Positions 8,078 through 27,279 of a stretch of 27,279 bases of DNA are shown piece after piece. The translations under genes and the position numbers were made by a program. The stretch is taken from the IMG/VR virus record IMGVR_UViG_2541047774_000009, one strand, 5' to 3'. Each line of letters starts with the position of its first letter. Position 1 is the first letter of the stretch. The notes below the pieces were generated by a model. The model was not told the DNA's origin and did not search any database. It was given only the letters and a program-made list of their open reading frames with translations. This DNA is from a virus. Taxonomy: Duplodnaviria > Heunggongvirae > Uroviricota > Caudoviricetes.

Positions 8078-8081
8078 ATCC

Positions 8082-8107
8082 AAAAAATACCCCTCCGGAG
8101 AGGGGTA
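8082..8107 (-). terminator. Minus-strand intrinsic terminator (candidate tR'-like)
   Basis: Perfect 8-bp stem TACCCCTC/GAGGGGTA (8088-8095/8100-8107) with 4-nt loop, followed on the minus strand by a U6 run (plus-strand AAAAAA 8082-8087). Confidence 0.5.
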
Positions 8108-8396
8108 TCATACAAGGGGATGACCATGATGCATGGTGCCGGGTGCCTCCCGGTGAGTCCGGCATCAGCATACGAACCCGCGATTATCCCAGAACTGACT
8201 GCTGATTCGCCCCGCCGCTTAGGGGGATTCACCATGCGTTTTTTTATTTACAAACTCTTCGCCAGACAAACAACCATTAACTGGCTGAATTGTGAGGTAT
8301 TTCAATTTTTAGAAAACTGACCAACCTCCGCTTATACGCCGGGCATGGAGCGGATACAAAAAAGCCCCGCAAAAGCAGATCAGAAGGATTCGTTGT

Positions 8397-11445: not shown

Positions 11446-11823
11446 TCAATCTTTAATTTCGGGGTCCATCTCTAGACTAATTTCCAGCATCGATAGGCAG
11501 CCATCAATAAACCCCTCAGCCATCTGTATCTCAATGCGTATTAGTTTCTCATCCTTTTTACGAGCCTTGGCGAGCTTTCTTTTAGAGATACCGTATAGGT
11601 AATGGGCAACAAGAAGCGAATGTTCGTCCGGCCTTTTTTGCCTTAGACGAGCAAGACAACCTTCAATAATTAATGCATCACTATCTGAACATGCCTGACG
11701 TGTTTTGCTTGTATAGGGAAGAAGCCCTTTAAACCCAGCAGCTATAGGAGAATAGTCTACTCCTGAACTATCACTCGCCGCCCATGCTCCCCAACGATCC
11801 AGAACCATTTGAATATCACGCAT
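11446..11823 (-). CDS. Late-gene antiterminator Q, phage-82/QuuD type (125 aa)
   Basis: MRDIQMVLDRWGAWAA...IAAGFKGL...C.D.DA.II.GC.ARL...LL..YY...KAEG.I.G.L..L.I.LEMD pattern matching QuuD/Q82 family; GGAGA RBS before ATG 11823. Confidence 0.8.
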   Translation of the reverse strand: MRDIQMVLDRWGAWAASDSSGVDYSPIAAGFKGLLPYTSKTRQACSDSDALIIEGCLARLRQKRPDEHSLLVAHYLYGISKRKLAKARKKDEKLIRIEIQMAEGFIDGCLSMLEISLEMDPEIKD

Positions 11824-11840
11824 CAACTTTCTCCACAAAA

Positions 11841-15523: not shown

Positions 15524-16338
15524 CCCCTGAATCCTGCCGGGATCTGGCTGTAGTCCACGTTGTCGTAACTGGCTTTGAAGTACGGGTCCTCGCGTCTGGC
15601 TGCAGATACCGCAGGAACTTCCCAGGATTCTTCGAAATGACGATCCGGACCAAAGAACGTGACAGCCTGTTTCACAAATTGTGTGCCGCTGTTACCCATC
15701 GCAGATACCCAGCCCGCGTAGCGTTTCACACCTTCCAGCATGGTTTCGGGTTTTACCCCCTCATTCAAACGAGCTTTCCAGGCTTTGAAGGCTGCAGATT
15801 TTGAATTGCCACCAGCACGTTTGGGGTATGCCAGCCATGCCTGCTCAAACTCCGGAGAGTATTCCGGTCGGTTTGAACGAACTCGCACGGACTCATCAGC
15901 AGATGCACCAACAGCTATTGGTTCATTGACTGGTTCTTTGACTGGTTCAAAAGAGTGACTGGTTCTGGGTGAATCTCCTGCACCACCCCCTGGTGCAACT
16001 CCTGCACTACCTGGTGAATTTGCTGCACCAGATAGTGAATTATTTGCACTACCCCCTAGTGAATCTCCTGCACCATCAAGATGAAGGAGATAGATATTAC
16101 TTGAGTTACCTTTTTCACCTTTCCGGGTGACTTTTTTTACCAGCCCGGAATCACAAAGGGCCGCAATATGATTCATCACAGAACGTTTGCTAATCTCGCA
16201 CTGGTCAGCAATATGCTGGTAGCTGGGCCAGCACTCACCCTGATCGCTGGCATTATCAGCCAGCTTGATCAGAACCAGTTTTCGCAATGGATTACCCACT
16301 CGAATTTTCATCGCTTTAACCATCAGCTCCATACTCAT
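15520..16338 (-). CDS. Replication initiation protein, O-like with HTH_36-type N-terminal domain (272 aa)
   Basis: N-terminal VGNPLRKLVLIKLADNASDQGECWPSYQHIADQCEISKRSVMNHIAALCDSGLV typical of phage replication-initiator wHTH; iteron array inside the Gly/Ser/Ala-rich linker coding region; GGAGG RBS. Confidence 0.7.
   Translation of the reverse strand: MSMELMVKAMKIRVGNPLRKLVLIKLADNASDQGECWPSYQHIADQCEISKRSVMNHIAALCDSGLVKKVTRKGEKGNSSNIYLLHLDGAGDSLGGSANNSLSGAANSPGSAGVAPGGGAGDSPRTSHSFEPVKEPVNEPIAVGASADESVRVRSNRPEYSPEFEQAWLAYPKRAGGNSKSAAFKAWKARLNEGVKPETMLEGVKRYAGWVSAMGNSGTQFVKQAVTFFGPDRHFEESWEVPAVSAARREDPYFKASYDNVDYSQIPAGFRG
15925..16080. repeat. Iteron array (candidate replication origin) inside the initiator gene
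   Basis: Three TGACTGGTTC repeats (15927-15965) followed by five about 19-bp direct repeats of consensus TRGTGAATYTCCTGCACYA (15966-16075) at about 21-24 bp spacing. Confidence 0.6.
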
Positions 16339-16571
16339 GCTGCACCTCCGAGATGCTTCATGTTTTTTCCGGAGCGAAAGGCTATAAGCGGCATACTGAC
16401 GCGGTAATTACGGCCCAGCGGTTCACAAATCACCTTCTGACATTCACGGTCAACCAGGCTGACACGTAGAACATGCCCTGCTGGCGTGGTGTACCACTGC
16501 CCAACTGTGGGTGTTGATATTTTTTTACGCTGAAATAAACGGTAAATGTTGAGGAGCAACGGATTAAGCAT
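16335..16571 (-). CDS. Hypothetical protein (78 aa)
   Basis: ORF with start and stop overlapping neighbouring genes (translational coupling); no family recognised. Confidence 0.4.
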   Translation of the reverse strand: MLNPLLLNIYRLFQRKKISTPTVGQWYTTPAGHVLRVSLVDRECQKVICEPLGRNYRVSMPLIAFRSGKNMKHLGGAA

Positions 16572-17400
16572 GACGATGCCCTCCGCTGATATTCAGGAGA
16601 CGGTGAATATGAAAATTAGCCTTATCCGCCAGACGAATACGTTCAGCTTGCAAGTTAAGAAGGGTTTCTACCAGAACCTGATGTGCCTGCGGATCCGAAA
16701 GAGTTACCTTGCGCAGAGCACGTAGTGCAGTTGTTACATAACTGAGTTTATGTAAGTCTTCATCATTCAGACGAGTGAGGGCTGGGACAGTAGCCATGAT
16801 GGCAGCCTCCGTATGCAATGGATAACTTCCACCACCGGAAACGCCAATTTCGCTGGTGGTGAACTGAGCAGGGTTGGCGTAACCGGCGCATACGGAAACC
16901 GGCGCACCTTTCGGTGCCCCCACCCAGCCCACCATAATTTGGGTATAGCTGAGTTGTAGCAACAAAAAAGACGCTAACGCGCCAATTGTCGCCGTATGCA
17001 ATTCCAGGACGCCAATCCCGGCACCCGCTTTATAAGGTGCCTGAACAGTGTAACGTCCCGGAATGGCAGAATCAATGTGCTGGTGGTCCTTCACACTCAA
17101 CAAAATCACGCCTGAATTTCCACAAAGGGCTAAAGCACTCATGCGGGTAGTCTTTGCGAAGATAGATAACGCGCTGTGTTTCTGGCTCCCAACGAATAAC
17201 ATGAACATAAAGTCCTCTTCCGTCACGAAACCAGCGGTTAAGTTCCTGCACAACTCGCCCCCCACAGTCAGGTAAAGTTCTCTGTGGTTACTTACAGCCA
17301 GGAGATTTGGTAATCTGCATTCATGCCGTAACAACAGGTGTTCAGCGACGCTGACCACCAGCTGTTGCGACAAACGGTTATTTGCCGTTAAACTGTTCAT
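16564..17400 (-). CDS. Hypothetical protein (278 aa)
   Basis: Long ORF tightly packed in early-right operon with ATGA overlap to upstream gene; no family recognised. Confidence 0.5.
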   Translation of the reverse strand: MNSLTANNRLSQQLVVSVAEHLLLRHECRLPNLLAVSNHRELYLTVGGELCRNLTAGFVTEEDFMFMLFVGSQKHSALSIFAKTTRMSALALCGNSGVILLSVKDHQHIDSAIPGRYTVQAPYKAGAGIGVLELHTATIGALASFLLLQLSYTQIMVGWVGAPKGAPVSVCAGYANPAQFTTSEIGVSGGGSYPLHTEAAIMATVPALTRLNDEDLHKLSYVTTALRALRKVTLSDPQAHQVLVETLLNLQAERIRLADKANFHIHRLLNISGGHRHA

Positions 17401-17960
17401 GCGTTAGTTTCTCCACAGACACAAAACGCCACGACGCCCGGAGCTGCACACTCGCGGGCGTCACTCTTTTCTGGAGCGCAAAAGATTTTGTAGACCAGTG
17501 CTGCATGCTCCTGGAGCTTCGAAATTGACAGATACAACTCATCATTAATTGCTGTCTGCTCGTGTGGCTCCACTATCCCATCTTCGATTGCCGAACGAAT
17601 CTGCTTTGAGTAACTCCCGATCTGTTCGATGACTTCCAGCAGGCGCTGGTTTATATCGGCGTTCTCTACTTCCTCAATTTCAGGAAGCGATACAAACACC
17701 CCACCAGCAGACTGTGCGACAGCATCCGCAATGTAGTGAGTGCCAGCCGCGCGCTGTAAAATCATTGCCCATCCCAGCGGGAAAATCTGATCGCCATCTG
17801 CACGAAGGCGGTTGAATAAAGCGTTCTCTGTTACATCCAGCCACTCAGCAGCTTCAGCGTAACCCCCCGGCAACGCCGCGATAGTTTTTCTGACAGCTTT
17901 CACGTACCACTCAGGCTGTTTTTCTACTTTCCAGTGATGCTTACCCACGGTTAGCCTCAT
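17397..17960 (-). CDS. Putative CII-like/YdaT-like early regulatory protein (187 aa)
   Basis: Second gene of the rightward early operon, 31 nt after cro-like gene; assignment by position and loose resemblance only. Confidence 0.35.
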   Translation of the reverse strand: MRLTVGKHHWKVEKQPEWYVKAVRKTIAALPGGYAEAAEWLDVTENALFNRLRADGDQIFPLGWAMILQRAAGTHYIADAVAQSAGGVFVSLPEIEEVENADINQRLLEVIEQIGSYSKQIRSAIEDGIVEPHEQTAINDELYLSISKLQEHAALVYKIFCAPEKSDARECAAPGVVAFCVCGETNA

Positions 17961-17991
17961 CGTTCTGTGGTTAAAAATTGAAGGTGTTCTG

Positions 17992-18192
17992 TTAATCTTT
18001 CGGATAGATATCCGGTCTTAAGTCAGATTTCGTAATTGCACCTGACGTGCATTGCTCAAGTTTTTTAGCCAGCACAAAACTGGCTTTTTTATAACCATTG
18101 AAAACCAGCCGTAAGTAGCCTGGTGTTGAGCCAACTTTTCCGGCCAACTCGCCCTGCTGTTCTTTGGTTAAAGAGTCCCAATACGCTTTCAT
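17992..18192 (-). CDS. cro: Cro-like HTH regulator (YdaS-like, 66 aa)
   Basis: Start ATG 18190-18192 with GGAGG 9 nt upstream; MKAYWDSLTKEQQGELAGKVGSTPGYLRLVFNGYKKAS... HTH; divergent from cI across an operator-containing 90-bp region. Confidence 0.7.
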   Translation of the reverse strand: MKAYWDSLTKEQQGELAGKVGSTPGYLRLVFNGYKKASFVLAKKLEQCTSGAITKSDLRPDIYPKD

Positions 18193-18282
18193 ACAATATG
18201 TACCTCCGGTATACATATTACATGATTGAGATGAACCTTCAAGATACTTGTACCTTATCGGTACAAAGGTTTTAATTTCTTT
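18193..18282. promoter_or_regulatory. Immunity-region operator/promoter region (OR-like) between cro and cI
   Basis: Perfect inverted repeat TTGTACCTTATCGGTACAA (18248-18266) and related site ATATGTACCTCCGGTATACATAT (18196-18218), both with TGTACC/GGTACA half-sites. Confidence 0.6.
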
Positions 18283-18957
18283 ATGAAAACAGTCCATGAC
18301 ATCCGGCGGTCTAACGCCAGAAAACTGAGAGATGGTGTTGGCGGGAATTCTTCCTTTGCCACCATGATTGATCGCGAGCCAACCCAGACCAGCAGGTTTA
18401 TGGGAGATGGTGCTACTAAAAATATCGGTGACAGCATGGCGCGGCACATCGAAAAATGTTTCGACCTGCCTGTCGGATGGCTTGATCAAGAACACCAGAC
18501 CACGAACATCACAAAAAAACCTGATGTTTCAATCACTAACAAACAAATAACGTTAGTCCCTGTCATATCATGGGTACAGGCCGGAGCATGGAAAGAAGTT
18601 GGCTATTCTGAGGTTGATTTGAGCACAGCAGAAACTTACCCCTGCCCTGTACCCTGTGGCGAAATGACTTATATCTTGCGGGTGATTGGTGATTCAATGA
18701 TTGATGAGTACCGCCCGGGAGACATGATTTTTGTTGATCCTGAAGTCCCTGCCTGCCACGGTGACGACGTTATTGCATTGATGCACGATACAGGCGAAAC
18801 CACCTTCAAGCGGTTGATAGAAGATGGAACACAGCGTTACCTCAAAGCATTAAACCCAAACTGGCCTGAACCTTACATTAAGATCAACGGTAATTGCTCT
18901 ATAATTGGTACAGTGATTTTCTCAGGAAAACCAAGAAGATACAAAATAAAGACCTAA
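18283..18957 (+). CDS. cI: CI-like prophage repressor with C-terminal S24 (LexA-type) peptidase domain (224 aa)
   Basis: C-terminal autocleavage domain with GDSM serine motif and downstream Lys (RVIGDSMIDEY...FKRL); divergent from cro. Confidence 0.85.
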   Translation: MKTVHDIRRSNARKLRDGVGGNSSFATMIDREPTQTSRFMGDGATKNIGDSMARHIEKCFDLPVGWLDQEHQTTNITKKPDVSITNKQITLVPVISWVQAGAWKEVGYSEVDLSTAETYPCPVPCGEMTYILRVIGDSMIDEYRPGDMIFVDPEVPACHGDDVIALMHDTGETTFKRLIEDGTQRYLKALNPNWPEPYIKINGNCSIIGTVIFSGKPRRYKIKT

Positions 18958-18970
18958 TCATTATTTATGA

Positions 18971-18993
18971 ACCTGCTTCGGCAGGTTTTTTTA
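18971..18993 (+). terminator. Intrinsic terminator after cI
   Basis: ACCTGC-TTCG-GCAGGT hairpin followed by TTTTTTT. Confidence 0.6.
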
Positions 18994-18996
18994 TAC

Positions 18997-19030
18997 TTGA
19001 CAATGTACTTTTGGGATACATAATGTATCC
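18997..19030 (+). promoter_or_regulatory. pL-like promoter with overlapping operator palindrome
   Basis: -35 TTGACA (18997-19002), 16-nt spacer, -10 CATAAT (19019-19024); perfect 17-bp palindrome GGATACATAATGTATCC (19013-19029) overlapping the -10. Confidence 0.5.
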
Positions 19031-19624
19031 AAAAGAAACATGCAACAGGCAAGATTCAAACAAAGTTTGGTTGTAACACGGCGTATGGCACATGCGTCGT
19101 TAGCGGTCTGGAGACGTTAAAGGGGACAATCCACTCCTTGCTCGGGCAAACAAACCAGGTAGCCGGAATGTGCAAGTCAATGATGATGCTGATAAGACGC
19201 CTAACCAGCGTGGCGATTCGGTTTGACGCCTGGGAAGAGACCAGGGTGCAACGATAAGAGCATTTATGGAGCCGAGACAAAGTGTGGCGCCGAACTGGCT
19301 AAGTGCTCTCAGCGTTGTGGTAATCCGCGAAATGGCGCGGCGGTAAGTATGGCGGGGTTAGTCTTTCCCCGTTGAGGACACCGGATTGTCAGGTTGACCA
19401 TACGCCTGAGTGACAACCCCACCACAACAGCCACTGCTTTGGCGGTACCAGTTTGTACACTTGCTTCCGGCTGGTACCGCTCTTTTTACAAAACAGAGAA
19501 GAGCATCACCGGACGACGGGCTCATAACCCAATCCATCCGGGCGGCTGCCACCGCAGGTGTTCTTCTCTGTTTTGTGGAGAAACCAACCGGCCTTGCAGG
19601 GTCGATATGATGAGGAGCAGCAAA

Positions 19625-19987
19625 ATGGCTAGCGAACGCAGTACTGATGTGCAGGCATTTATCGGGGAGCTGGACGGCGGCGTATTTGAAACCAAAATCG
19701 GCGCAGTTCTCAGTGAAGTCGCTTCCGGTGTGATGAACACGAAAACCAAAGGGAAGGTCTCGCTCAACCTGGAAATCGAACCGTTTGATGAGAACCGTGT
19801 GAAAATCAAACACAAACTCTCATATGTTCGCCCGACTAACCGCGGGAAAATTTCCGAAGAAGACACCACCGAAACGCCGATGTATGTCAATCGCGGTGGT
19901 CGCCTGACTATTCTGCAGGAAGACCAGGGACAATTACTGACTCTTGCCGGTGAACCTGACGGAAAACTCCGCGCAGCAGGTCGTTAA
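19625..19987 (+). CDS. YfdP-like phage protein (120 aa)
   Basis: ATG 19625 with GAGGAG 7 nt upstream; precedes yfdQ/yfdR homologues in the same order as CPS-53 yfdP-yfdQ-yfdR. Confidence 0.55.
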   Translation: MASERSTDVQAFIGELDGGVFETKIGAVLSEVASGVMNTKTKGKVSLNLEIEPFDENRVKIKHKLSYVRPTNRGKISEEDTTETPMYVNRGGRLTILQEDQGQLLTLAGEPDGKLRAAGR

Positions 19988-20052
19988 TATCGTTCTTAAT
20001 TAACCGATTATTTATCTCATCACTGAATATCTTTATATAGTGAGGACTTATT

Positions 20053-20877
20053 ATGTCTCAGAACTTAGACGCAACCGCAATTAATCAAATCCATGCCCTT
20101 ATTTCTGCTCAGGGTGTTAATGAAATTATCAGTAAGATTGGTGCCGATGCTGTGGCATTGCCTGAGAATTTCCGCATTCATGATCTGGAAAAATTTAATT
20201 TAAATCGCTTCCGTTTCCGTGGTGCGCTTTCCACTGCCAGCATCGATGACTTTACCCGTTATTCTAAAGATCTTGCAGATGAAGGCACCCGCTGCTTTAT
20301 CGATGCTGATAATATGCGAGCAGTCAGTGTGCTTAACCTGGGTACTATTGATGAACCAGGTCACGCAGATAACACCGCCACTCTCAAACTGAAAAAGACA
20401 GCACCGTTCTCTGCCCTGTTGTCTGTTAACAGCGAGCGTAACTCCCAGAAGTCACTGGCAGAATGGATTGAAGACTGGGCCGACTATCTTGTGGGCTTTG
20501 ATGCTAATGGTGACACCATTCAGGCAACAAAAGCGGCTGCGGCGGTCCGTAAAATCACGATTGAAGCAAACCAGACTGCTGATTTTGAAGATAATGACTT
20601 CAGCGGCAAACGCTCCCTGATGGAGTCTGTCGAAGCGAAGACCAAAGACATTATGCCAGTGGCATTTGAGTTTAAATGCGTTCCGTTTGAAGGTCTGAAA
20701 GAACGTCCGTTTAAATTACGCCTCAGCATTATCACTGGCGATCGTCCTGTACTGGTTCTGCGCATTATTCAGCTGGAAGCGGTGCAGGAAGATATGGCTA
20801 ACGAATTTCGTGATCTGCTTGTTGAGAAATTCAAGGACAGCAAAGTAGAAACCTTTATTGGGACTTTCACCGCCTGA
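20053..20877 (+). CDS. yfdQ: YfdQ-like DUF2303 protein (274 aa)
   Basis: [22 protein letters not shown]... 274 aa, same length and N-terminus as recalled for E. coli YfdQ; GAGGA RBS. Confidence 0.7.
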
Positions 20878-21005
20878 TTTCATTACTGCAAATGCCCCTG
20901 CGGGGGCATTTATGGAAACGTAATTGACTCAATAATCGCCTGAAGGCGAGGGTTTTCTTTAACCAAAATTCAGCGCGATGCAGCGCATATAACGTGGAGA
21001 ATAAA

Positions 21006-22546: not shown

Positions 22547-22753
22547 ATGCTGAACCTCGATTGTGTTCCTATCTCAACTTATTGCAAAGAAACTGGCGAA
22601 ACTCCTGAAGCAATAAACAAACGTGTACAGCGCGGTGTTTGGCGTGAAGGTGTTCAGGTTTTAAAGGTTGAAGGCGTTAAGGAGAGGTGGATTGATCTTA
22701 GTGAGGTTGCAAAATGGGCCAGACAAAACTGCTCAAACTACCGCGCGGCGTAA
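22547..22753 (+). CDS. xis: Excisionase-like protein (68 aa; alternative start 22535)
   Basis: Small basic ORF immediately upstream of and overlapping int by 40 nt; GGAG RBS; resembles prophage excisionase-like proteins. Confidence 0.6.
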   Translation: MLNLDCVPISTYCKETGETPEAINKRVQRGVWREGVQVLKVEGVKERWIDLSEVAKWARQNCSNYRAA

Positions 22754-23889
22754 CAATCAGGAAACACCGCCAGGGCGAAACGATCAATATAACTTTCACC
22801 TACAAAGGAGTTAGATGTCGTGAGCCGCTTTCCAATCTGGAAGTAACACCAAAGAACATTAAATACGCCGAGCGTACACTCGGCGAAATCCATAATAAGA
22901 TCGAAAGGGGAACATTCATTTATGCAGAATATTTTCCCCGTTCTGCTCGTTTGAAAATTTTTGGTAATGCTGCTGCAGGCAAAACGGTAAAGATGTACCT
23001 GGACGAATATCTTGAAATCTGCGAAACAAGAAAACTTTCACCCTCTACGATTGGTGGCTATAAAAAATGCCGTAGTGCGTTAGCCTCACTTCACATTTGC
23101 CCTGCAAGTGAATTAACACCAGCAACCCTGAAAGCGTGGATTCAAAGCCAGAAAACAACCTTAAAAACCATTCGCAACCAGTTATCTTTCCTGCGGTCAG
23201 CACTTGATGAAGCCGTGACCGATGGGGTACTTCAAATTAACCCCGTATCGTTAGTAACAGCTTCGCGCTACCAAAGTGATAAGTCAGAAGCAGAAAGCAG
23301 CTATGTGGTTGATCCGCTATCACCAGCAGAAGTTGATGCATTACTAGCAGCAGCCGGAAACAAACAATGGGAAAATCTGTTCCGGTTCGCTATACATACA
23401 GGCCTGCGTAGTTCTGAACTATGTGCCCTTCGATGGCGTGATATCGACTTTGTTGGAAAAACAGCACATGTCCAGAGCGCAAGTGTTGTTGGTGTTATCA
23501 AAGGGACCAAAACAAAAGCCGGTACTCGTAAAGTTGAACTGACAGAAGAGGCAATGTTGGCGCTGATAAATCAGAAGCCATTTACGTTCATGAAAGATGC
23601 TACGGTCTTTGAAGATCCAAAGACCAATAAGCCTTGGGCAAGTGCTGATGCAATCAGGAAAAAAGCATGGGTGCCAACATTGCGAAAAGCAGGTATTCGC
23701 TACAGAAACCCATATCAGACCAGGCACACTTATGCTACTAAGTACATTAGCCAAGGAGCTAATCTCTTCTGGCTAGCAGGGCAGATGGGGCATAAGGGGC
23801 CCGAAATGTTGTTTCGTCATTATGGGCGTTACTTGAGTGATTATGACAACCACAGCTCAACAACGCTCACAAGTAATTGCAAAAAGTAG
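22714..23889 (+). CDS. int: Tyrosine integrase (391 aa)
   Basis: Catalytic-domain motifs HTGLRSSEL (Arg), RHTYATK (His/Arg) and LFRHYGRYL (Tyr nucleophile); N-terminal arm-binding-like domain. Confidence 0.9.
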   Translation: MGQTKLLKLPRGVTIRKHRQGETINITFTYKGVRCREPLSNLEVTPKNIKYAERTLGEIHNKIERGTFIYAEYFPRSARLKIFGNAAAGKTVKMYLDEYLEICETRKLSPSTIGGYKKCRSALASLHICPASELTPATLKAWIQSQKTTLKTIRNQLSFLRSALDEAVTDGVLQINPVSLVTASRYQSDKSEAESSYVVDPLSPAEVDALLAAAGNKQWENLFRFAIHTGLRSSELCALRWRDIDFVGKTAHVQSASVVGVIKGTKTKAGTRKVELTEEAMLALINQKPFTFMKDATVFEDPKTNKPWASADAIRKKAWVPTLRKAGIRYRNPYQTRHTYATKYISQGANLFWLAGQMGHKGPEMLFRHYGRYLSDYDNHSSTTLTSNCKK

Positions 23890-24139: not shown

Positions 24140-24991
24140 ATGACTACACCAGTAATAAGTTTCATAAATATGAAAGGTGGGGTTGGTAAAACAACTTTAT
24201 GCGTCGGCATTGCTGAATATCTTGCAAACTTCATGGATAAAAAGGTATTAATTATCGATATTGACCCACAATTTAACGCTACACAGTCAATACTTAGTAA
24301 ATATGATCGAGTGAAAGAGTATATAGCTGATCACTTAGAAAATACAAAAACCATCAGACGAATATTCGAGACAAAATCAAGCTTAACGGGTAAAGTTCAG
24401 CAGGTCACTCCTGATGAAATTATCATCAAGATGTCAGAGCACTTAGATATGATTTTTGGTGATATTAATACAATATTTGATATTGAACAACCTGCGGCAA
24501 GATTACATAAGCTAAAACGCTTTATAGAAGAACATAAGCTTCGAGATATATATGACTTCATTTTGATCGATAGCCCACCAACCATTTCATTATTTACTGA
24601 TGCAGCTCTCGTTGCTTCAGATTATTATATTGTGCCAGTTAAAATTGACCACTACTCAATTTTAGGTGCGACAAGTCTTTTAAGCGTAATAGAAAACATT
24701 CAAGATAATTATGACCATAAAAACATTCAAAACCTTGGTTTTATTTATACTAATACCCTAGAAAATCTATCAAAAAAGACAAAAAAGCTAAAGACAGACT
24801 TTGAAAGTACTGAACCTTTTAATGAACTATACTTTTTTGATAACCAGTTGAAGTTTGTACAGGATTTGATGGTGGGTGGTAGAGGTAATATATCATCAAG
24901 TTATAAATCATCCAGAAAATATATCAAAGCGATTTGTGAAGAGTTTTTAAGTCGGATCCAAGAAGTGCAAACGGGGGGGGAAGATGAATAA
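24140..24991 (+). CDS. ParA/MinD-family P-loop ATPase (283 aa)
   Basis: Deviant Walker A MKGGVGKTT, IDIDPQFNATQ motif, ILIDSPPTISLF Walker B-like segment; AGAGGGA RBS; AT-rich. Confidence 0.85.
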   Translation: MTTPVISFINMKGGVGKTTLCVGIAEYLANFMDKKVLIIDIDPQFNATQSILSKYDRVKEYIADHLENTKTIRRIFETKSSLTGKVQQVTPDEIIIKMSEHLDMIFGDINTIFDIEQPAARLHKLKRFIEEHKLRDIYDFILIDSPPTISLFTDAALVASDYYIVPVKIDHYSILGATSLLSVIENIQDNYDHKNIQNLGFIYTNTLENLSKKTKKLKTDFESTEPFNELYFFDNQLKFVQDLMVGGRGNISSSYKSSRKYIKAICEEFLSRIQEVQTGGEDE

Positions 24992-25397
24992 AAATAGTAA
25001 CAACCTCGAATTATTACAGACATTGGTTTATAAGAAGCCCTCGTCAAAAGAAGCGTTTATTGGTTTGATAACAATAGCAATCTATTCTAGGGAAATTTTT
25101 GTTAAAAATGAAGATGCAGCAGAATTCGTAAAAAATGTATTTGGATTAAGTTTCTTAGACTACGTCATCAAGTCAAGAACTTTATTATGCGCTAGACTTA
25201 CCCGTAATCTTGTAAATATGAGCGAGAGAGACATTAAAGAATGCATATATAAAGCATCAGAGTATTTTAAAACTGACAAATTTATTATTGGATATAATGA
25301 AAACTCACTTACTTTTAAAAAAAGTAACGTCAAACGTAATGCAAATCGAGATGTAGGTACGTGGATTAATGCTCTTTTGAAGAAGGATAGAAAATAA
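24984..25397 (+). CDS. Hypothetical protein (137 aa), second gene of ParA-like operon
   Basis: Start overlaps ParA stop by 8 nt; Lys/Asn-rich; no family recognised. Confidence 0.5.
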   Translation: MNKNSNNLELLQTLVYKKPSSKEAFIGLITIAIYSREIFVKNEDAAEFVKNVFGLSFLDYVIKSRTLLCARLTRNLVNMSERDIKECIYKASEYFKTDKFIIGYNENSLTFKKSNVKRNANRDVGTWINALLKKDRK

Positions 25398-26062
25398 TGC
25401 TTCAAAGAGACCCACATGGATTTAGAAAAGACGTAAAAGAATTTATCACAATGATAAAATCATTTCAGGTCGATATTCGCACCGAAAACAATCTTACATC
25501 GGCTTATAAACATGTGCTTTTTCTGGAGTTTATCCATAACTCACATCCAGAAATAAGTCACAAAACCTTTATAAAAAGTATTATTTATGATGTTTTAAGT
25601 TCAATTACAGCGATACTTCATAAACGAGAGCGATATCTTCATCTTAATTTTCGCTCAATGATTGAACATCTTGCACGTATATCCTTACAAAAAGTTGATA
25701 ACGGGGGGGATTTCGATATTACAATTAGAACTCTTGATTTCGAGAATCTTAAATCTACCAACACTGATGAAAACTGGGCGTACATGCATTCACAGTATAA
25801 ACAAGCATGTGGCTGGTTACACTCATCATCTAAAGTTAAATTAAATATCACAGCATCATTTCCAGATTTATTAAAGTCTGATTCAAAAAGTAATGCAGCT
25901 AAACTGTCAACCCATTTGCAAAAGATGACTACCGAAATGTTAAAGATTTTTTTTAACTACTATGTTGATGAGATTCAAACTTCTTTTTACCGCACACGGG
26001 GAGAAATGAGGTATGTGCTTGGCAACCATAACTTCGAATATTTTTTAAGCAAGAATCCATAA
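25397..26062 (+). CDS. Hypothetical protein (221 aa), third gene of ParA-like operon
   Basis: ATG overlaps upstream stop (TAATG), AAGGA RBS; no family recognised. Confidence 0.5.
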   Translation: MLQRDPHGFRKDVKEFITMIKSFQVDIRTENNLTSAYKHVLFLEFIHNSHPEISHKTFIKSIIYDVLSSITAILHKRERYLHLNFRSMIEHLARISLQKVDNGGDFDITIRTLDFENLKSTNTDENWAYMHSQYKQACGWLHSSSKVKLNITASFPDLLKSDSKSNAAKLSTHLQKMTTEMLKIFFNYYVDEIQTSFYRTRGEMRYVLGNHNFEYFLSKNP

Positions 26063-26152
26063 ATATATATTTCCTTAAAAAGGATACGTGAAGTACACGA
26101 AGCATGCGAGAAATAAAATAAAAAAATAAAAATCAATAAATTAAAAACAAAT

Positions 26153-26184
26153 GGACGCTGGTTCAACTCCCGCCAGCTCCACCA
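26153..26184 (+). other. ssrA: 3'-terminal fragment of ssrA (tmRNA) forming an attachment-site junction
   Basis: GGACGCTGGTTCAACTCCCGCCAGCTCCACCA matches the E. coli tmRNA 3' end (T-arm and CCA) with one G-to-T difference in the T-stem; upstream sequence is AT-rich and unrelated to the ssrA body. Confidence 0.8.
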
Positions 26185-26231
26185 AAATTCTCCATCGGTG
26201 ATTACCAGAGTCATCCGATGAAGTCCTAAGA

Positions 26232-26264
26232 GCCCGCACGGCGCAAGCCCTGCGGGCTTTTTTG
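26232..26264 (+). terminator. Intrinsic terminator downstream of ssrA 3' end
   Basis: GCCCGCA...TGCGGGC stem followed by TTTTTT. Confidence 0.6.
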
Positions 26265-26388
26265 TGCCTTGAATTTGTCCCGCGAAGTCTGATGCCAACT
26301 AATTAAATCCGAACCTTTTAGGCACCTTGTTAGGCACCTCATAAAGCTTTATTGTTTTTGAGGTGCCTAAAACTATGGAAACCCGGCA

Positions 26389-27279
26389 ATGGCAAGACAA
26401 ACCAAACCTCTCTCCGTTAAGGAAATCGAATCAGCCAAACCCAAAGAAGTGGACTACGTTCTCTATGATGGTGATGGCCTTGAGCTACTCATCAAATCCA
26501 GCGGGAGTAAAATCTGGCAGTTTCGCTACATTCGCCCTGTCACCAAGAAACGTGCGAAGAAGAGCATTGGCCCCTACCCGTCAGTTACGCTTGCCGATGC
26601 AAGAAACTATCGCGCAGAGTCTCGTTCTCTTCTGGCGAAACAAATCGACCCTCAGGAACATCAGCAAGAACAACTTCGCAGTTCGCTGGAAGCTAAAACC
26701 AATACTTTCCAGCTCGTGGCTGAACGTTGGTGGAATGTGAAGAAAACCAGTGTGACCGAAGACTACGCAGAGGATATCTGGCGCTCTCTTGAGAGAGATG
26801 TTTTTCCTGCGATTGGCGACGTTAGCGTTACAGATATTAAAGCTCACACACTGGTTCAGGCCGTCCAACCGGTTCAGGCCAGAGGAGCACTGGAAACCGT
26901 TCGTCGCCTGTGTCAGCGCATTAATGAGGTCATGATCTATGCCCAAAACACAGGGCTGATTGATGCTGTACCCAGCGTTAATATCGGTAAAGCATTCGAG
27001 AAGCCTCAGAAAAAGAACATGCCCAGCATTCGACCGGATCAGCTACCACAACTGATGCAAACAATGCGAACAGCCAGCATTAGTCTTTCCACACGCTGCC
27101 TGTTCATGTGGCAACTCCTTACTATTAGCCGCCCTGCCGAAGCGGCTGAAGCACGCTGGGAAGAGGTAGACATAGAAGCGCGAGAGTGGAAGATTCCTGC
27201 AGCACGTATGAAAATGAACCGCGACCATACTGTTCCATTGTCAGATGAAGCAATTGTGTCAACGACGGATGAAAAGTGA
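26389..27279 (+). CDS. intA: IntA-like (P4/CP4-57 family) integrase, apparently truncated at 296 aa
   Basis: MARQTKPLSVKEIESAKPKEVDYVLYDGDGLELLIKSSGSKIWQFRYIRP... P4-family integrase N-terminal and core-binding regions; in-frame TGA at 27277-27279 before the catalytic His/Arg/Tyr region. Confidence 0.75.
   Translation: MARQTKPLSVKEIESAKPKEVDYVLYDGDGLELLIKSSGSKIWQFRYIRPVTKKRAKKSIGPYPSVTLADARNYRAESRSLLAKQIDPQEHQQEQLRSSLEAKTNTFQLVAERWWNVKKTSVTEDYAEDIWRSLERDVFPAIGDVSVTDIKAHTLVQAVQPVQARGALETVRRLCQRINEVMIYAQNTGLIDAVPSVNIGKAFEKPQKKNMPSIRPDQLPQLMQTMRTASISLSTRCLFMWQLLTISRPAEAAEARWEEVDIEAREWKIPAARMKMNRDHTVPLSDEAIVSTTDEK

Follow-up and report, generated by a model that had tools for sequence, protein, structure and literature searches.

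A mosaic early-left leader in a lambdoid prophage, built of noncoding RNA modules and related to the dicF region of Qin

The put RNAs of phage HK022 act on RNA polymerase by way of the beta-prime zinc-binding domain and do so without protein factors. DicF is a small RNA of the Qin prophage of Escherichia coli K-12, and dicF-like terminator sequences were reportedly described in several prophages by Faubladier and Bouché in 1994. PMC9438474 and PMC5069750, both citing Faubladier 1990, give 2 forms of DicF: a 53-nt form that results from Rho-independent termination and RNase E trimming, and a 72-nt form that results from RNase III cleavage of read-through RNA. For a phage of the yfdPQR type in which N is absent, a 2025 paper only speculated on a put-like mechanism (PMC12315714). 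Here, we analyze the leader of an early-left operon that begins with yfdP and is accompanied by no N-like gene. It lies in IMG/VR virus record IMGVR_UViG_2541047774_000009, a stretch of 27,279 nucleotides that we refer to as the window, and it fills the 600 nt between a pL-like promoter and yfdP.

The leader is long, highly structured, and conserved, and it is a mosaic of 5 modules: B1, H1, H2, T, and H3. We favor, with slightly better than even confidence, the view that it is an early-operon noncoding RNA cassette of the Qin dicF-region design, similar to the dicB operon, with embedded noncoding RNAs, a leaky terminator, and an RNase III-type stem before yfdP. In addition, B1 and H3 appear to be RNA classes that have not been described.

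Modules of the leader and their relation to the dicF region

The leader was compared with 83 viral contigs encoding identical or near-identical YfdP and with 31 genome loci from other genera. Across these loci it breaks into modules that recombine independently. Positions ~19043-19439 behave as a replaceable block, and 19440-19624 always accompany yfdP. T and H3 are present in 82 of the 83 E. coli viral loci, H2 in 77, and B1 in 17. Separately mobile modules speak for a cassette, as does a locus (L074) in which H2 begins ~10 nt after the -10 element of pL. The stretch is common in E. coli genomes and yet left blank by annotation: of 5426 complete E. coli genomes, 4741 contain part of it, as do many phages with Shiga-toxin or cdt genes, and PGAP leaves the leader gap without any annotation in a 99.8% identical genome. 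A literature search using sequence strings gave no matches.

Folding and comparison support structure at the RNA level. Against shuffled controls, the fold of the whole leader has z = -3.6, and that of 19430-19627 has z = -6.2. An earlier note on this DNA had singled out 2 inverted repeats in the leader, had proposed structure prediction and covariance analysis as a check, and had named a lack of conservation as grounds for giving up its proposal; both repeats are conserved, and both stems covary across genera.

The shorter of these repeats is the stem of T. Described in the note as a perfect 8-bp repeat, it is real and is in fact a perfect repeat of 10 nt (19442-19451 / 19471-19480), although the first arm had been placed one base off (its true position is 19444-19451). 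The 10-bp stem of T is rich in G+C, encloses a 19-nt loop, and is followed by UCUUUUU. At this position, a hairpin followed directly by 5-8 U is found in 21/21 sequences (the window and 20 related loci from several genera), in keeping with a cassette that contains a terminator. The stems differ in sequence yet stay complementary (GGCGGUACCAG, GCGGCGUC, GCGGCACC, GGCGGG, GGUGGC). T thus combines the G+C-rich hairpin, U-run, and fixed position of an intrinsic terminator. A generic terminator scan missed it because the scan allows loops of up to 8 nt, and the loop of T has 19. The sequence CGCTCTTTTTACAA, which the note had put forward as close to boxA, does sit at 19478-19491, but its core, GCUCUU, varies among orthologous leaders: it reads GUCCUU in most E. 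coli phages and GCAAUU, GCACUU, or GCCCCU elsewhere. Only the U-run, and not boxA, is conserved. The repeat and the supposed boxA together make up the hairpin and the U-tract of an intrinsic terminator, and the hairpin is homologous to the one that terminates DicF.

In other genera the loop of T is long, as in L088, L089, L098, L104, L107, L108, and L110-L112, where it holds an inner hairpin and a conserved motif, GAUGAAGAUAAUGUUCUG, that is missing from the E. coli version of the loop. A mini-open reading frame (mini-ORF) in the long loops of other genera was judged not to be a gene, as its Shine-Dalgarno sequence abuts the AUG.

The strongest likeness of the leader is to Qin. In the K-12 Qin prophage, the region up to and including dicF has counterparts of H1, H2, and T in the same order. 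Immediately before dicF lies a segment that matches H2 at 105/115 nt (91%), and where the closing stems differ, pairing is retained. T aligns with the DicF hairpin (window GGCGGUACCAG vs dicF GGCGGUAUCAG), and the alignment comprises the blocks UUUGGCGGUAUCAGUUU vs UUUGGCGGUACCAGUUU and CCGCCCUUUUU vs CCGCUCUUUUU. The pattern of the DicF terminator, GGCGGUAUCAG...CCGCC with a U-tract, recurs in the window as GGCGGUACCAG...CUGGUACCGC followed by UCUUUUU. The genomic setting of DicF recurs as well, namely a repressor-controlled early operon, H1-H2 before the hairpin, and a long stem after it. Past the DicF terminator, Qin has a stem of 21 bp that carries an STnc100-like element as its cap and stops just short of the ribosome-binding site of dicB; in the window, T is followed by a 25-bp stem. 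The end of the 72-nt form of DicF, 19 nt past the annotated dicF end, maps inside the 21-bp stem of Qin. Collinearity, stem layout, and the position of this end all speak for a leader of the dicF-region design.

A side observation concerns the Qin stem itself. It starts 8 nt after the DicF terminator and encloses an unannotated STnc100-like cloverleaf in the dicF-dicB spacer of K-12 Qin (L122 2947-3087; 34.1 bits, E ~1e-5).

The long-range repeat of the earlier note is the base, P1, of a three-way junction that constitutes H3. Its 15-nt core is exact, and the full repeat extends to 25 nt with 84% complementarity (19488-19512 / 19552-19576). RNAalifold, applied to 18 sequences from several genera, yields 39 pairs, 12 of them with compensatory changes; 97.7% of cells pair vs 44-58% in slid controls, and no shuffle reached the observed covariation. 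P1 starts within the U-tract of T, which pairs with an invariant GGAGA. Since 4 near-invariant U-G pairs in P1 correspond to A-C mismatches on the opposite strand, only RNA of the + strand forms P1. An uninterrupted duplex of ~20 bp or more is the feature by which an RNase III substrate can be recognized, and P1 offers 25 bp with 99.3% of cells paired in the 18 sequences. H3 has no match in Rfam, and a scan of the whole leader with relaxed thresholds gave nothing of relevance.

The tip of the P2 arm of H3 is identical to the anticodon stem-loop of initiator tRNA-fMet at 14/14 nt, comprising 3 G-C pairs and the loop CUCAUAA (alignment with K-12 metZ). This 14-mer occurs once in the window, where 0.00 occurrences are expected by chance. 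It forms the best-conserved loop of H3, with CUCAU retained in 17/18 copies. No pairing partner for the loop was found elsewhere in the window. The tip may descend from a tRNA gene, or it may act as an operator or as a decoy or sensor for nucleases that cleave tRNA-fMet, among them enteric VapC toxins (PMC7180214).

A Buttiauxella locus (L090, ~2380-2500) departs from this arrangement: an H2-type cloverleaf leads directly to GUGGAGAAC and the yfdP ribosome-binding site, and T and the interior of H3 are absent. This natural deletion variant could help to reveal the roles of T and H3.

Upstream of T, H1 and H2 form the part of the leader that connects it to tRNA genes and to STnc100. The stem of H1 compensates between loci (GAGCA/UGCUC, GCGCAC/GUGCGC, GCUAAG/CUUAGC), and H1 is also found in the Qin dicF region and in phiV10. 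H2 occurs in 13 variants that have unrelated interiors and share one fold: a closing stem, a short linker (AAU in most) with a hairpin, and a last hairpin that abuts the 3' strand. The closing stems covary, as in GUUGUGAC/GUCACAAC and GCAUGGUG/CACCAUGC. One of the 13 folded variants is the bona fide STnc100 of the late leader of the window. This STnc100 and the pL-leader elements of related phages share the closing stem, the AAU linker and hairpin, and a CACCGGGAGGCACCCGG hairpin. H2 of the window likewise has the closed multibranch fold followed by an intrinsic terminator that characterizes STnc100. A pL leader of the L007 type scores 43.4 bits (E = 3e-8) with the full STnc100 model, terminator included, which lies just below the gathering score and agrees with a cassette of embedded noncoding RNAs.

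In some loci the H2 slot is filled by tRNAs (L100, L105, L117, L118, and L119). It holds tRNA-Arg(UCU) in phiV10 (L117 2242-2318), SPN9TCW, and BUCT711, and a tRNA-Ile(AAU)-like gene in Phytobacter (L100 2222-2300). In phiV10 and Phytobacter, H1 precedes the tRNA slot and a DicF-like T follows it; in SPN9TCW, the slot likewise comes after B1-H1. Neither ARAGORN nor the Rfam tRNA model finds a tRNA gene in the window. H2 is thus an element of the tRNA slot, and it may itself be tRNA-like. As a group, the leader modules behave as a portable cassette of tRNAs and small RNAs (sRNAs).

B1, the first module, is also found outside yfdP loci. A covariance model (R1) built from 10 copies scores 160 bits in the leader and finds no other copy in the window; in viral contigs it detects 81 copies, of which 72 are distinct. 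In B1, 97.4% of cells pair vs 30-45% in slid controls, and compensatory changes support 10 pairs, in an alignment that was fitted to the model and so favors pairing. Its invariant blocks include unpaired ones. B1 matches no Rfam family, and the copies found by a distant search, 79-83% identical, are all unannotated. Phage P1 carries B1 between trnI and ban, in the C1-controlled ban operon and 2.3 kb into it; further copies lie in the P1-like D6 and SJ46, in a Klebsiella phage, in the epsilon15-like phiV10, SPN9TCW, and BUCT711, where they adjoin tRNA-Arg, and in mEp390 just downstream of the gene for a cI-like repressor of the LexA family. In phiV10, the series promoter-like site, B1, H1, tRNA-Arg, and T is apparently a self-contained unit. 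This stand-alone unit argues for the cassette view, as it implies that the modules form a portable cassette for the expression of noncoding RNA, with T at its end.

The earlier note had also drawn attention to an Arg-rich ORF of 26 codons at 19040-19120. The ORF exists, but close relatives lose its ATG or interrupt its frame: relatives of the Ayreon type, among others, have no ATG at this place, and other variants carry in-frame stops, for which reason we rejected the ORF as an N-like peptide. Its nucleotides are those of helix 1 of B1, a helix also conserved in P1, which has no corresponding ORF. The ORF is a chance by-product of the B1 RNA sequence.

Within the leader, the invariant block AGCCGGAA of B1 (19161-19168) is perfectly complementary to UUCCGGCU in the loop of T (19465-19472), with partial pairing on both flanks. 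As an antiterminator this pairing was rejected. phiV10 and Kosakonia carry B1 but not this complementarity, and the same T loop occurs in phages without B1, so that the match is probably due to chance. A 9-mer complementarity between B1 and H2 was also set aside, being by a rough estimate at about the level expected by chance for 600 nt.

Coordinates of the leader modules and of related features, numbered from the first letter of the window
Feature	Position	Strand	Description
cI-like repressor gene	18283-18957	+	LexA-like, ymfK-type; ends in terminator
Intrinsic terminator of cI-like gene	18969-18988 (element listed as 18969-18995)	+	8-bp stem then T-run; terminator scan
pL-like promoter	18997-19024 (-35, 18997-19002; -10, 19019-19024)	+	TTGACA-16-CATAAT, 11/12 matches
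Operator-like palindrome over promoter	19003-19041 (19003-19021 / 19023-19041)		Inverted repeat I2
B1	19072-19253	+	Structured RNA, 165-190 nt; invariant blocks GGUAGCCGGAAUGUGCAAG; GGCGAUUCGGUGUGAC; GGAAGAG loop
H1	19256-19311	+	Hairpin AAGAGCAUU...AAGUGCUCU before cloverleaf slot; compensatory stem changes
H2	19314-19428	+	Cloverleaf-like, STnc100-like multibranch element; closed by GUUGUGGU/ACCACAAC, 8-nt perfect repeat
T	19441-19487	+	Intrinsic terminator, DicF-like hairpin; stem 19442-19451 / 19471-19480 (repeat I3), 19-nt loop, U-tract 19481-19487
H3	19483-19581	+	Three-way junction; P1 19483-19507 / 19557-19581 (25 bp), P2 arm with tip, P3 hairpin GCGGCUGCCACCGC
Tip of H3 arm P2	19517-19530	+	CGGGCUCAUAACCC; identical to initiator tRNA-fMet anticodon stem-loop
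Small hairpin	19589-19604	+	From folds
Shine-Dalgarno sequence of yfdP	19612-19617	+	GAGGAG
yfdP start codon	19625	+	yfdP from PGAP
STnc100, bona fide	8078-8266	-	114.5 bits; late-gene leader, downstream of Q antiterminator gene (11446-11838)

Proposed mechanism and rival explanations

On the model that we favor, inactivation of the LexA-like repressor would allow RNA polymerase to start at ~19031. The polymerase would transcribe B1, H1, and the cloverleaf-like H2, and would then meet T. A share of the transcripts would end there, producing a structured RNA of ~460 nt. By analogy to DicF and to the tRNAs in the H2 slot, RNase E or RNase P may trim this RNA to stable pieces, which would include a 3' fragment of ~55 nt with hairpin and U-tail. 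Other transcripts would read through T; in these, the U-tract would pair with the invariant GGAGA and join the 25-bp P1. RNase III cleavage at P1 would then split the leader from the yfdP-yfdQ-yfdR-xis-int mRNA. Partial termination at T combined with read-through would make T a constitutive attenuator of the early-left operon.

Several results weigh against this model. The 5' seed with which DicF pairs to ftsZ, UUUCUGGUGACG, is absent from the window, which has AGCCACUGC in its place. At E <= 10, the Rfam model of DicF (RF00039; gathering score 48 bits) has no match in window positions 19240-19500, and that of STnc100 (RF02076; gathering score 47 bits) has none in the window leader. The DicF model gives the L007 variant a weak 19.4 bits, compared with 76.7 bits for K-12 dicF. 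As T lacks the DicF seed and the leader matches neither the DicF nor the STnc100 model, a role as a trans-acting sRNA is unproven. Simple attenuation plus processing does not explain why the unpaired blocks of B1 and the tip of H3 are so strictly conserved in sequence. Finally, a phage without N must pass both T and the hairpin at 20890-20913 to express xis and int, so an active mechanism of read-through is still attractive.

The earlier note had suggested antitermination of the nut or put type, or regulation by the leader. Leader-RNA regulation is plausible, but the motifs cited in its favor are not parts of a nut or put site. The note was correct that there is no N-like gene. Scans of 10 early-left and early-right products against Pfam and PHROGs detect no N-like family, and PGAP annotates none in the 99.8% identical locus. 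A nut site of lambda combines a conserved boxA with boxB; here, no boxB-like hairpin (5-bp stem, 5-nt loop) follows the "boxA", and the motif itself is a terminator U-tract that is paired in P1. To detect put, we built a covariance model (R2) from 6 put RNAs, which recovers its own inputs at 66-101 bits. With filters off, its best score in window positions 16000-20100 is 5.6 bits, outside the leader, and blastn of HK022 putL and putR against the window finds nothing. No second copy of any leader module is present downstream of pR, as the leader compared with the whole window gives chance matches and the B1 model finds a single copy. The put family comprises ~21 records in the phage collection, and none is a relative of this phage. 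The leader belongs to neither the nut nor the put family.

These results leave next to no probability for a nut site of the lambda type that would have its boxA at 19478-19491 and depend on a small, Arg-rich, N-like peptide encoded at 19040-19120. The resemblance of CGCTCTTTTTACAA to the boxA of rrn, with one extra base, and the Arg-rich character of the 26-codon ORF had made this reading worth considering. It is contradicted by conservation, since the boxA core varies even among E. coli phages; the site is the U-tract of the terminator and part of stem P1, and an adjacent boxB-like hairpin is missing. The ORF, in turn, has no Shine-Dalgarno sequence, starts ~9 nt from the expected 5' end of the transcript, loses its ATG or gains stops in relatives, and overlaps the conserved helix 1 of B1. 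Very improbable, too, is a reading in which the repeats are features of the DNA, either recombination junctions between modules or protein-binding palindromes, and not of RNA structure. It was suggested by module boundaries that coincide with short motifs, GTTGTGG and CACAAC for example, that are conserved. Near-invariant U-G pairs in P1 and B1, which are A-C mismatches on the other strand, argue for RNA, as do compensatory changes that preserve pairing as sequence changes and an orientation to the downstream genes that is constant in all contexts.

Another alternative is a factor-independent RNA antiterminator, put-like in action but unrelated to put: RNA polymerase would be bound during elongation by B1, H2, or both and carried past T and later terminators, and N would so be replaced. 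We consider it quite unlikely. It gains from the lack of an N-like protein, from the intrinsic terminators between pL and xis/int, from the conservation of B1 in repressor-controlled or repressor-flanked operons of unrelated phage types (the P1 ban operon, mEp390), and from the put-like mechanism suggested for a yfdPQR-type phage without N (PMC12315714). The negative result of the put model in the leader counts against it, as does the occurrence of B1 as a single copy, with none downstream of pR. Moreover, 66/83 E. coli loci with T-H3-yfdP have no B1, and B1 is therefore not generally needed to pass T. The STnc100 consensus, which is architecturally related to H2, ends in a terminator hairpin that belongs to the model, which implies that such RNAs end there. 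The B1 of P1 sits 2.3 kb inside its operon.

H3 may also act in its own right, as a cis operator or decoy that mimics the anticodon stem-loop of initiator tRNA, binds a protein that recognizes tRNA-fMet, and thereby controls yfdP or protects the tRNA-fMet of the host. Candidate binders are a VapC-type nuclease, the 30S subunit or an initiation factor, or a product of the yfdP operon. This explanation is unlikely. The identity of 14/14 nt lies at the most conserved loop of a junction supported by covariation, H3 is inseparable from yfdP, being linked to it at 83/83 loci, and tRNA-fMet is cleaved by enteric VapC toxins (PMC7180214). The binding partner, however, is purely hypothetical; the tip could be the relic of a tRNA gene, because tRNAs occupy neighboring slots; and loop positions 37-38 are changed in 4 H3 copies. 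YfdP itself was dropped as an RNA-binding partner of H3, as its AlphaFold model gave no informative match.

A bolder claim joins the 2 undescribed modules, and we regard it as a long shot. In N-less lambdoid, P1-like, and epsilon15-like phages, B1 would modify elongating RNA polymerase or Rho in a factor-independent manner; in addition or instead, H3 would be a mimic of the initiator-tRNA anticodon stem-loop that serves as a decoy or sensor for VapC-like nucleases or as a translational operator. If this holds, B1 would enable temperate phages that have no N to transcribe past their own terminators, and both RNAs would act on core machinery of the host.

Genomic context of the leader

The window is a lambdoid prophage of the SfV / cdtI / Ayreon / mEp460 type. 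The terminator of its cI-like gene carries a terminator annotation in phages Ayreon and SfV. One half of the operator-like palindrome, ATGTACTTTTGGGATACAT, resembles ATGTACCTCCGGTATACAT at 18198-18216 in the pR/pRM region, and the promoter segment (to ~19054) travels with the immunity region across the compared loci. The early-left promoter is strong and repressor-controlled. As the earlier note had it, ~600 nt separate this promoter from the first early-left gene, yfdP (19625-19987). Its further statement that this interval has no ORF of 60 codons or more is, taken literally, false: ORFs occupy 19056-19280 (-), 19358-19813 (-), and 19410-19610 (+), and yfdP has an in-frame TTG extension from 19394. 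These were rejected as genes, as PGAP leaves them out and indels break them across genera.

Downstream, yfdP is followed by yfdQ (DUF2303), yfdR (5'-deoxynucleotidase), a gene for a 296-aa protein, xis, and int. YfdP belongs to a family of unknown function (PHROG 204 / PF27127), and the structural neighbors of its AlphaFold model (pLDDT 69.6) are uninformative. A second terminator-like hairpin lies after yfdQ, at 20890-20913.

The pR operon also contains noncoding RNA. IsrK (61 bits, with its own terminator at ~16970-16983) and the C4 antisense RNA (81 bits) stand in tandem on the - strand at 16852-17040, inside an ORF annotated as "ash family protein" or "immunity region". This pair indicates that the early-right operon, too, has embedded RNAs and a terminator, in a layout like that of P1/P4 RNA immunity. 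At the other end, the region 24140-27279, past the integrase gene (22714-23889), holds parA-like genes and then P2-like genes, among them an ogr/Delta-like gene at ~26817-27035; late control D lies just beyond the window end (annotation of L003). These genes indicate that a second mobile element adjoins the prophage.

Comparison with known systems

The leader links DicF, STnc100/PasD, and phage tRNA slots, which until now have been treated separately. A dicF-type cassette provides a testable model of how lambdoid phages without N gate their early-left operon, including xis and int. In addition, the leader contributes 2 covariation-supported RNA motifs that are missing from Rfam: B1, and the H3 junction with its initiator-tRNA-like tip.

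Compared with lambda, the leader shares with nutL/N its position between pL and the first early-left gene, and its long duplex is a possible RNase III site, like that of the lambda N leader. It differs in having no N-like protein and no conserved boxA or boxB, and in that a terminator precedes the first gene. With put of HK022, it shares the character of a cis RNA in the early-operon leader of an N-less lambdoid phage, upstream of terminators. The put RNAs are ~70 nt in length, form 2 stem-loops, and occur at both pL and pR, whereas the leader modules are 115-190 nt and single-copy; sequence and structure are also unlike.

The leader of the P1 ban operon is closer in kind. It belongs to a repressor-controlled early operon, with tRNAs, an annotated dicF-like region, and B1 just upstream of ban; its module order is different, and no H2-T-H3 block stands beside B1. 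STnc100 (PasD) resembles H2 in its multibranch architecture, with a closing stem of 8-9 bp, a 5' AAU linker and hairpin, a last hairpin that abuts the 3' strand, and an intrinsic terminator that follows. The interior of the window H2 is unlike that of STnc100, and the site differs, being the early-left leader for H2 and downstream of Q for STnc100.

The Qin dicB operon, like the operon studied here, is a repressor-controlled early operon of a lambdoid prophage. The likeness to its dicF region extends to the order of elements: H1, H2, a GGCGGUAYCAG...CCGCC hairpin with U-tract, and a long perfect stem with a structured cap before the next gene. The 2 loci differ in the cap, which in the window is a three-way junction with a tRNA-fMet-like tip and in Qin an STnc100-like cloverleaf, and in the next gene, which is yfdP in the window and dicB in Qin. 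Finally, the cassette of the window stands directly after pL and has B1 added to it.

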